Origin: a virus
Lineage: Duplodnaviria > Heunggongvirae > Uroviricota > Caudoviricetes
IMG/VR virus record: IMGVR_UViG_2529292735_000021
Span: 1-8,059 of that record
DNA length: 8,059 nt
Direction: 5' to 3' (one strand)
Position numbers and translations under genes: made by a program
Notes under the pieces: model-generated
What the model was told of the DNA's origin: nothing
What the model saw: the letters and a program-made list of their open reading frames with translations, nothing else
The model's database searches: none
Shown here: positions 6,234 through 6,720 of the stretch, one piece after another
How the letters are laid out: every line of letters begins with the position of its first letter
Position numbering within the stretch: position 1 is the stretch's first letter

Positions 6234-6515
6234 TTAATCAGCATTCTCCTGCTTCCATTGCCGGATCATTTCATCAGTAACATCACTCTCATAACATACA
6301 ACATCATACCCTCCAGTACGGCTATATGCACTGCGTCCACCACACCTACTACCATTCCTTGCATGATTATAAGGACACGCACAATTGCCTGGATATGATT
6401 CAATGGATTCTTTAATTATTTCTTTCTTGATCTGAACATCAGACTTTCCTGTTGCTGCATACCCACTAAAAGATACCAAACAAAAGCAGATTGCCATTAA
6501 TAAACCACATCGCAT
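6234..6515 (-). CDS. Small Cys-rich hypothetical protein with predicted N-terminal signal peptide (about 93 codons from ATG 6515; ORF open up to 6629)
   Basis: ORF-track ORF 6234..6629; the internal start MRCGLLMAICFCLVSFSGYAATGK... has a basic n-region, hydrophobic core and GYA-A cleavage-like site; the mature part holds four Cys in CACPYNH...RCGGRSAY...VCYESD. Lies in a roughly 35-40% GC stretch (hand count) between the two hok loci. No lipobox. Family not recognised. Confidence 0.5.
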   Translation of the reverse strand: MRCGLLMAICFCLVSFSGYAATGKSDVQIKKEIIKESIESYPGNCACPYNHARNGSRCGGRSAYSRTGGYDVVCYESDVTDEMIRQWKQENAD

Positions 6516-6720
6516 ACCGATACACTCTATTACTAACCAATCATAACCCACATCATAAAATCGAGATGTGGAGTACAACACCTTTAACAAGAAGGTGTCA
6601 TAACGATAATATGTCGAGCAATTCATCAAAAAAAAGATCTATATCAAAGAGATAGAGCTCTTATCAGTACTGCAGACATCGGCATTCGAAGCAGCAGAAA
6701 AAACAGTAAATCTGACGAAT

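Follow-up and report, generated by a model that had tools for sequence, protein, structure and literature searches.

A small Cys-rich protein encoded at the attR end of a P2-like prophage: possibly a stand-alone ligand-binding module of the cell envelope

What is encoded by the short, AT-rich gene that lies just inside the right end of a P2-like prophage of Escherichia coli, and what might its product do for the lysogen? The gene is found on the minus strand of an 8,059-nucleotide stretch of DNA (IMG/VR virus record IMGVR_UViG_2529292735_000021, positions 1 to 8,059; 'the window' hereafter), which consists of E. coli chromosome with the right end of such a prophage. An earlier note, made from the letters of the window, had described an open reading frame (ORF) at 6234-6629 as low-GC cargo encoding a secreted, Cys-rich protein, had hesitated between two starts, and had considered metal binding, superinfection exclusion and immunity as roles. 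The answer proposed here, a tentative one that falls somewhat short of probable, is that the product is a stand-alone copy of a widespread, small extracytoplasmic module that binds a ligand as an accessory to other proteins and is not itself an enzyme. The gene model and the genomic context, in contrast, are held with high confidence.

Gene model and precursor protein

The maximal ORF is present as described (6234-6629, minus strand), and comprises 131 codons from TTG 6629 or 130 codons from ATG 6626. The coding sequence proper occupies 6234..6515 on the same strand, from ATG 6515-6513 to the stop codon TAA at 6236-6234, and specifies a precursor of 93 amino acids that corresponds to PHROG 27544. 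This start, one of the two that the earlier note had offered, is preferred because PGAP annotates exactly the 93-residue form in three genomes (strains S1, 14EC001 and EDL933; WP_071589622.1 and WP_001303543.1), because homologues outside E. coli all begin with a hydrophobic leader starting at the equivalent of ATG 6515, and because the 38-codon 5' extension of the ORF is interrupted by an in-frame stop in the divergent allele of E. coli strain 33-6 (85% protein identity), where it is also scrambled and shows heavy non-synonymous divergence. The protein of the window is identical to WP_071589622.1, and the EDL933 copy is 95% identical to it. Within the 93-codon frame, the ratio of non-synonymous to synonymous polymorphism (pN/pS) is 0.16-0.24 in three pairwise comparisons. 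Thus, from the annotated form, the starts of the homologues and the constraint on its frame, the 93-residue gene is real and under purifying selection. The longer, 130/131-residue reading from 6626/6629 was rejected, since the interrupted and scrambled extension in strain 33-6 stands against a constrained shorter frame; given that stop, and the absence of a counterpart in other genera, the segment at 6516..6629 (minus strand) is non-coding and is probably a 5' untranslated region together with the promoter region. A weak Shine-Dalgarno-like element (AGAG, 6525-6528) lies 9 nt before ATG 6515. The GC content of the coding sequence is 39.7%, as against approximately 54% for the phage tail genes, which agrees with the description of the gene as low-GC cargo.

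The first 20 residues of the precursor (MRCGLLMAICFCLVSFSGYA; 6456..6515, minus strand) have the layout of a classic signal peptide: by heuristic assessment of n-, h- and c-regions, MR (the n-region) is followed by CGLLMAICFCLVSF (the h-region) and by SGYA, with signal peptidase I predicted to cleave between SGYA and AT. The best 10-residue Kyte-Doolittle mean of the leader is 3.16, and a positive n-region, an h-region within the 10-16-residue range and small residues at -3 and -1 are all found, as befits a substrate of Sec and signal peptidase I; we infer that the gene product is a Sec-exported precursor. The leader contains three additional Cys. A lipoprotein reading was rejected for the window copy, the leader of which does not end in a lipobox ([LVI][ASTVI][GAS]C).

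The predicted mature protein (6237..6455, minus strand) comprises 73 residues (approximately 8.1 kDa, isoelectric point (pI) 5.8), and contains exactly four Cys in the pattern C45-x-C47...C58...C74, in keeping with the mature peptide of about 70 residues with a CxC...C...C arrangement that had been anticipated. AlphaFold2 models (mean pLDDT 80.4 and 79.9) place a Cys-rich loop core between two helices. The conserved core, residues 41-75 (YPGNCACPYNHARNGSRCGGRSAYSRTGGYDVVCY; 6291..6395, minus strand), bears all four of these Cys.

A widespread family, its partners and a proposed binding function

The belief that the protein belongs to no recognised family was well founded: it matches nothing in Pfam, NCBIfam or the PADLOC-DB v2 defence hidden Markov models (HMMs; 0 families at E<=1), and no sequence relative was found in the PDB with either a single sequence or a profile. 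Chance PDB matches to a norovirus protease (E 0.3) and a subtilase (E 2.8) were rejected, and weak matches to Sclerostin, Ragweed_pollen and RIM2a_ZnF were dismissed as noise from the Cys pattern; a Pfam scan of 107 relatives at E<=1 produced nothing recurrent. A search of the literature (by accession, PHROG identifier, motif, CP-933T/leuZ and P2-like/ogr/hok) found nothing on the protein, and all sources label family members 'hypothetical protein', in entries that carry neither a function nor a domain definition. The one clear match is to phrog_27544 (function unknown), which covers residues 13-93 at E 1.6e-59; a weak match to PHROG 14503, classed as 'moron, auxiliary metabolic gene and host takeover', was also found.

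The family itself is large. A word-indexed search returned 181 homologues with 44-99% identity, and the profile search that the earlier note had recommended recovered 2,299 representatives of 50%-identity clusters at E<=1e-3 (1,470 at E<=1e-10). With one narrow peptide pattern, hits were obtained in 324 species genomes, which belong to Enterobacterales, Aeromonas, Acinetobacter, Sphingomonas, Geobacteraceae, Xanthomonas and Chromobacterium; separate searches matched 116 plasmid records and 89 viral contigs of IMG/VR. A mobilisable Cobetia plasmid of 4.7 kb carries a family gene with a single hypothetical gene as its only other cargo. Separately, one 45.6-kb viral contig (L048) carries two copies, at 4379-4675 and 5911-6207, approximately 1.2 kb apart on the same strand. 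The family is absent from Pfam and NCBIfam, and PHROG 27544 is its only curated entry. A hydrophobic leader, variable in sequence, directly precedes the domain in 292 of 316 unique single-domain relatives, and the mature part contains exactly four Cys in 307 of them; a lipobox-like motif is seen in 11 of the 316 (for example LGGC in L084/L085).

Conservation was assessed on 381 core segments picked by their CG.RSA motif, so that C58, G59, R61, S62 and A63 are at 100% by construction. The family core reads Y-P-G-x-C-x-C-P-Y-N...G-x-x-C-G-x-R-S-A-Y-S-R-x-G-G...C-Y. Its remaining Cys are kept almost without exception (C45 99%, C47 98%, C74 99%), as are S37 (97%), Y41 (97%), G43 (97%), P48 (98%), G55 (99%), G68 (97%) and G69 (99%), together with Y or F at position 49 (95%), Y or W at 64 (97%), S at 65 (93%), R or K at 66 (98%), Y at 75 (93%) and D or E at 78 (96%); N50 (83%), R53 (73%) and N54 (79%) are somewhat more variable. 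The window protein has the four Cys along with Y41, P48, G55, G59, R61, S62, A63, S65 and G69. The invariant residues other than Cys are R61, S62, A63, S65, G55, G59, G69 and Y41, and no invariant acidic residue or His was found in the family alignments. The CxC pair takes the form CPC in 61% of members and CAC in 36%. The His of the motif CPYNH, to which attention had been drawn earlier, does exist (H51); it is not a family feature (position 51 is T in 28%, H in 14% and S in 13%), so that a metal site built on Cys and His of this motif is unlikely and a His-based site was ruled out.

A search with a query from a viral contig, and only that search, also uncovered distant homologues of 53 amino acids in temperate phages: gp43 of Escherichia phage TL-2011b (L174 3453-3614) and a protein of Klebsiella phage ST512-KPC3phi13.3 (L175 3462-3620). 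Annotated as 'transmembrane anchored protein' and encoded next to ant/arc in the immunity region, these mini-homologues consist of a signal peptide followed by GRCQHDSDTAADGSRCGGRSADSRPGG, a mature peptide of approximately 31 residues, in which C45 and C58 are the only Cys with a counterpart and the RCGGRSAxSRPGG loop is retained. Because just those two Cys are retained, the alignment suggests a C45-C58 disulfide in the full domain and, by elimination, a second disulfide between C47 and C74; it also argues against both a Cys4 metal site and a vicinal CxC redox centre.

The most informative evidence on function comes from the company that the domain keeps. Among 60 longer family members, fusion partners were SH3_3 (12 members), SH3_4 (7), PG_binding_1 (3) and SNase (3), with one member each for GmrSD_C/DUF1524, TonB_C, PG_binding_2 and CBS. 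The family domain is found at either end of such proteins, and is duplicated in tandem in P0121 and P0123; by eye, it is also combined with an Excalibur-like segment (P0177) and with a YHYH-like segment (P0131).

A second survey covered 124 loci (windows of 10-12 kb, with the three genes on each side of the family gene clustered). No neighbour is universal across these loci, and the largest cluster of neighbours reflects genus-level synteny approximately 145 nt downstream of cysDN in Acinetobacter, which was judged uninformative and set aside as a functional clue. In seven of the 124 loci, the immediate neighbour of a stand-alone copy is a nuclease gene whose product bears a signal peptide: Endonuclease I in L059 (downstream, gap of 5 nt), Endonuclease_NS in L075/L076 (downstream, 1 nt) and L102 (downstream, 94 nt), and SNase in L071 (28 nt), L103 (a weak match, 7 nt), L126 (convergent, 1 nt) and L078 (divergent and overlapping). 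Four further nuclease genes lie within 4 kb. The small proteins of L059, L071 and L075 are near-identical, and are partnered with three different nuclease folds. Secreted nucleases of these kinds are rare, with one to a few genes per genome. Set against that rarity, 10 non-redundant cases among about 124 windows, clustered at the immediately neighbouring position, would be far above an informal expectation. In sum, the domain recurs, fused or adjoining, with four unrelated secreted nuclease folds and with cell-wall-binding modules, and this association of the family with extracytoplasmic nucleases and cell-wall-binding modules is new here.

The proposal of a binding module takes its support from these arrangements, in that the domain can be exchanged between nuclease folds, forms fusions in both orders, is repeated in tandem and is joined to peptidoglycan-binding partners; it also draws on a conserved surface of Arg, Ser, Asn and aromatic residues that lacks any invariant acidic residue or His. 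We infer the following course of events. Removal of the 20-residue signal peptide would release a 73-residue protein into the periplasm, where its four conserved Cys would most likely form two disulfides (C45-C58 and C47-C74 being the proposed pairs). Its gene is cargo at the attR-proximal end of a P2-like prophage resident in leuZ/3'ETS-leuZ, transcribed opposite to ogr and hok, with a transcript that probably ends at a terminator common with hok. The proposed ligand of a surface comprising Y41, Y49, N50, R53, N54, R61, S62, Y/W64, S65, R/K66 and Y75 is nucleic acid or some other sugar-phosphate polymer of the envelope, and the free periplasmic module might, in the lysogen, modulate the fate of DNA or envelope polymers there. 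One speculative example is that it acts with or against the host's periplasmic endonuclease I, so that uptake or exclusion of foreign DNA is affected; another speculative role is the masking of an envelope structure. Nucleic acid as the ligand could best explain the link to nucleases, and an envelope sugar-phosphate polymer or peptidoglycan could best explain the link to SH3b and PG_binding domains.

Several observations weigh against this proposal. More than 90% of the examined loci have no nuclease nearby, and adjacency in phage accessory regions could in part reflect a clustering of genes for exported cargo. The SH3b and PG_binding fusions fit binding to peptidoglycan or envelope as well as binding to DNA. 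The mature E. coli protein is acidic (pI 5.8, net charge -1, versus a family median pI of 8.8), which weakens a simple picture of DNA binding for this copy. The AlphaFold2 model, which is only moderately confident, matches no known fold and gives no functional help. As to the gene itself, a simple promoter scan found no consensus sigma-70 promoter upstream on the minus strand, and no close homologue was found in isolated, sequenced phages (blastn and tblastn against 50,697 INPHARED records, P2-like phages included).

A bolder version of the proposal, which we consider improbable, is that the family is an unrecognised nucleic-acid-binding partner domain of nucleases, perhaps with a new small disulfide-knotted fold, used interchangeably by phages, chromosomes and plasmids in combination with four or more unrelated folds of secreted nucleases; mobile elements, this P2-like prophage among them, would then employ free copies of it in the periplasm to govern what becomes of incoming or extracellular DNA, either excluding the DNA of superinfecting phages or plasmids together with host EndA or protecting DNA from that enzyme.

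The gene at the end of the prophage

The position of the gene in the prophage is best read from the chromosomal border inward. Beyond the ORF lie genes for tRNA-Leu(UAA), tRNA-Cys and tRNA-Gly followed by pgsA, in that order, and homology to K-12 begins at window position 6988, two bases beyond the 3'ETS-leuZ small RNA (sRNA). The border is marked by attR, a 124-bp sequence (6988..7111, minus strand) that comprises the 3' 55 nt of the tRNA-Leu gene leuZ and the entire 3'ETS-leuZ sRNA. In strain 14EC001, whose corresponding region is 98.4% identical to window positions 5420-8059 (99.7% over the ORF), a complete P2-like prophage of 36.4 kb extends from this border to an integrase beside yecA, and the two ends of that element form a perfect direct repeat (124/124) equal to window 6988-7111 (L173 979-1102 / 37482-37605). 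Since these repeats bound the 36.4-kb element, the gene, located 472 bp inside attR, belongs to the prophage. As a side observation, the lysogen carries a second, promoter-less copy of the 3'ETS-leuZ sequence (K-12 b4759) next to the integrase and yecA.

A megablast search detected the gene in 616 (~11%) of 5,426 complete E. coli genomes, among them that of O157:H7 strain EDL933, where IS30 has replaced ogr and hok and the gene still stands beside leuZ. Strain 33-6 carries its divergent allele in the same terminal position (in the order hok, serine acetyltransferase gene, the allele, host copA) at another chromosomal site, and Salmonella has a homologue of 57-68% identity that is flanked by the same tRNA cluster on one side and by ogr with two hok genes on the other. 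These cases concur that the gene and the ogr/hok end of P2-like elements travel together. On that basis, and in view of its absence from isolated phages, it is accessory cargo (a 'moron') of the P2-like prophage that lies outside the P2 core set; it sits within the att bounds and outside the P2 gene set, and it has an atypical GC content, its own orientation and a likely terminator.

The neighbouring features on the prophage side include ogr (5451-5711, plus strand) and an intact hok toxin gene (5902..6042, plus strand; PF01848 at E 3.7e-07, NF007290) that converges on the gene studied here. The encoded product of the latter gene has no PF01848 match of its own, that Hok/Gef signature being confined to its neighbour at 5902-6042. 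Upstream of the intact hok, an Rfam match to the sok antitoxin (5756-5890, plus strand) scores 43.9 bits, below the gathering score of 59. Between the two convergent genes, a hairpin with flanking runs of A and T (6125..6160) has the make-up of a bidirectional intrinsic terminator: RNA folding of 6105-6235 (minus strand) gives a hairpin of 15 pairs and, after it, a U-rich tail (z = -2.5), and it is likely that the hairpin terminates both hok and the gene on the opposite strand.

The gene had been placed 'between the two hok loci', a statement that stands for the first of them only. The second locus, upstream of the gene at approximately 6690..6900 (plus strand), is a decayed duplicate of the 3' end of ogr and the hok leader without an intact hok ORF, as seen from a pairwise alignment with 5660-6160 and from families of direct repeats (D1, D2, D3 and D5) that recur in 5679-6006 at a spacing of approximately 880-1030 bp; it contains no equivalent of the sok match. 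The bracketing of the gene by an intact and a degenerate ogr/hok copy suggests that the cargo may have been acquired by recombination or duplication.

The remainder of the window contains tail tube and sheath genes (957-2629, minus strand) and gpD (late control D, VgrG-like), which is divided between two overlapping ORFs (2722-3603 and 3515-3958, plus strand), apparently through a frameshift in an A-rich run; the same gene is annotated as truncated in 14EC001, and the split may mean that the prophage is defective, or it may stem from an error in sequencing. The slot at window 3949-5419, between gpD and ogr, is a variable cargo site, and possibly a defence hotspot. In the window it holds an AT-rich ORF of 386 codons (4089-5249, minus strand; 32% GC), which has no match in Pfam, NCBIfam, PHROG or PADLOC; elsewhere the same slot holds an unrelated 487-residue protein (14EC001), a restriction-endonuclease fragment with IS1 (S1) or IS30 (EDL933). 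In Acinetobacter, to add a further setting of the family, the family gene is chromosomal in 10 loci (L125, L130, L137, L142, L153, L160, L167, L169 and L171, at approximately 4900-5200 in each, and L132 at 379-648) and follows cysD-cysN, which encode sulfate adenylyltransferase, at a distance of 85-148 nt and in the same orientation, with variable genes further downstream.

Alternative readings and known systems

The first alternative to be weighed is that the protein is a superinfection-exclusion or anti-phage factor, which would act in the periplasm by blocking DNA injection or adsorption of other phages. Such a role, itself compatible with a binding module, is unlikely but far from negligible. 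It is encouraged by the situation of the gene as lysogeny-side cargo at the end of a P2-like prophage, beside hok/sok and near the variable gpD-ogr slot, by the weak match to PHROG 14503 with its 'moron' class, and by the placement of the mini-homologues of TL-2011b-type temperate phages beside ant/arc, the immunity region in which P22-type phages carry sieA. However, no PADLOC defence model recognises the protein, and neither the frequent occurrence of the family at chromosomal core positions (for example downstream of cysDN in 10 Acinetobacter species) nor the presence of the domain in multidomain proteins of the cell envelope is typical of a dedicated exclusion factor.

That the protein binds metal, through either a Cys4 site for Zn or Cu or an Excalibur-like Ca2+-binding loop, seems distinctly unlikely. 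The four invariant Cys are in its favour, as are the resemblance of N50-x3-N54-G55-x2-C58 to the DG-x-x-C of Excalibur, the replacement of N by D in some relatives (D..DGSRC in the mini-proteins, DDKDSIGEVC in L084) and a set of partners (SNase, DUF1524/GmrSD_C and SH3b) that is the same as that of Excalibur (PMC5714182). Against these points, the family has no acidic cluster and no conserved His, and its residue after C58 is an invariant Gly rather than Glu; none of 107 members is hit by the Pfam Excalibur model at E<=1. Thiolate Zn sites would be unusual in the oxidising periplasm, and the retention of two of the four Cys by the mini-homologues fits disulfides better than a Cys4 site. Furthermore, P0177 holds, by eye, an Excalibur-like segment in addition to the family domain, so that the two apparently co-occur as separate modules.

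A periplasmic inhibitor or immunity protein, directed against a secreted nuclease, a lysozyme or other peptidoglycan hydrolase, or a toxin that acts in the periplasm, is about as poor a candidate. A small, exported, singly encoded protein would suit that role, its location directly upstream of a secreted nuclease gene in L059, L075 and L102 recalls toxin-immunity pairs, and the orphan copies on plasmids and prophages resemble orphan immunity genes. Yet inhibitors are usually fold-specific, whereas near-identical family members accompany three unrelated nuclease folds, and covalent fusion to SNase and GmrSD_C nucleases, in either order, would be self-inhibitory; the tandem repeats, a mostly basic family (hence no DNA mimic) and the lack of Pfam similarity to Ivy or PliC/MliC all point the same way.

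Very improbable is a redox-active mini-oxidoreductase, in which a C-P/A-C vicinal disulfide (as in the CPC of Mia40 and in CXC mimics of PDI) would assist the folding of disulfide-containing secreted proteins such as nucleases. Many secreted nucleases do need disulfides, and the predicted periplasmic location, the link to secreted nucleases and the near-universal CPC or CAC pair would suit this idea; but the mini-homologues lack the second Cys of CxC and nonetheless keep the remainder of the loop, conservation is strongest in RSAYSRxGG, away from CxC, neither binding-module fusions nor repeats in tandem are typical of oxidoreductases, and thioredoxin-fold and Mia40 families show no similarity to the protein. 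Finally, an annotation artefact (an untranslated region, or a true product of 130/131 residues) can hardly be entertained: many metagenome gene callers report the 130-residue form, and a consensus promoter is lacking before an ATG that has only a weak Shine-Dalgarno-like element, but the constrained 93-residue frame, the stop in the extension of allele 33-6 and hundreds of proteobacterial homologues that keep the length and a leader weigh against it.

From the invariant Arg, Ser, Tyr and Gly, the nuclease and cell-wall partners and the tandem copies, an accessory module that binds a ligand appears to fit better than either a specific immunity protein or a metal site. Approximately one in nine complete E. 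coli genomes carries the gene, and its family numbers thousands across Proteobacteria, plasmids and phages while having no Pfam model and no solved or recognisable fold. How small modules steer where, and on what, extracellular or periplasmic nucleases act is poorly understood, and such modules bear on DNA uptake, on obstacles to horizontal transfer and on the turnover of extracellular DNA in biofilms; that the domain is paired repeatedly, as a module, with unrelated secreted DNases and with cell-wall modules is a concrete and testable lead. Should the domain turn out to be no more than a generic tag for binding the envelope, the gain would be a new domain definition that is useful for annotation and otherwise unsurprising.

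Among known entries, PHROG 27544, WP_071589622.1 and WP_001303543.1 represent the same family as the window protein, with no difference to report and no function assigned. The mini-homologues, which probably correspond to PHROG 14503 ('membrane associated protein'), resemble it in their signal peptide, in the loop C-x13-C-G-G-R-S-A-x-S-R-P-G-G and in being temperate-phage cargo; they differ in having two Cys, in lacking the flanking helices, the CxC pair and the C-terminal C-Y, and in lying beside ant/arc rather than at a P2 attR end, and the similarity spans approximately 35 residues (E ~1e-4 to 1e-5). Ivy, PliC/MliC and ComEA-type binders are small, stable periplasmic proteins with a Sec leader that act by binding and not by catalysis; the general design is that of the window protein, although neither sequence nor fold is similar.

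A closer comparison is offered by Excalibur (PF05901), which accompanies calcium-binding extracellular nucleases, including DUF1524 proteins (PMC5714182). Both domains are small, Cys-containing extracytoplasmic modules that occur at either protein end, both keep the same partners (SNase, DUF1524/GmrSD_C and SH3b; PMC5714182 for Excalibur), and both contain a short (D/N)-G-x-x-C element. They part company in their detail: the Pfam HMM does not hit the window protein or any of the 107 relatives at E<=1, and the DxDxDGxxCE loop of Excalibur is missing from the window family, where its counterpart is N-H-A-R-N-G-S-R-C-G, with D at position 52 in only 17% of members and an invariant Gly after C58. 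The window family has, instead, four Cys with a CxC pair and invariant Arg, Ser, Tyr and Gly, a chemistry that points to an anionic or polar ligand rather than to Ca2+. In architectural role, nevertheless, Excalibur would seem to be the closest known analogue of the module that this prophage gene is proposed to encode.

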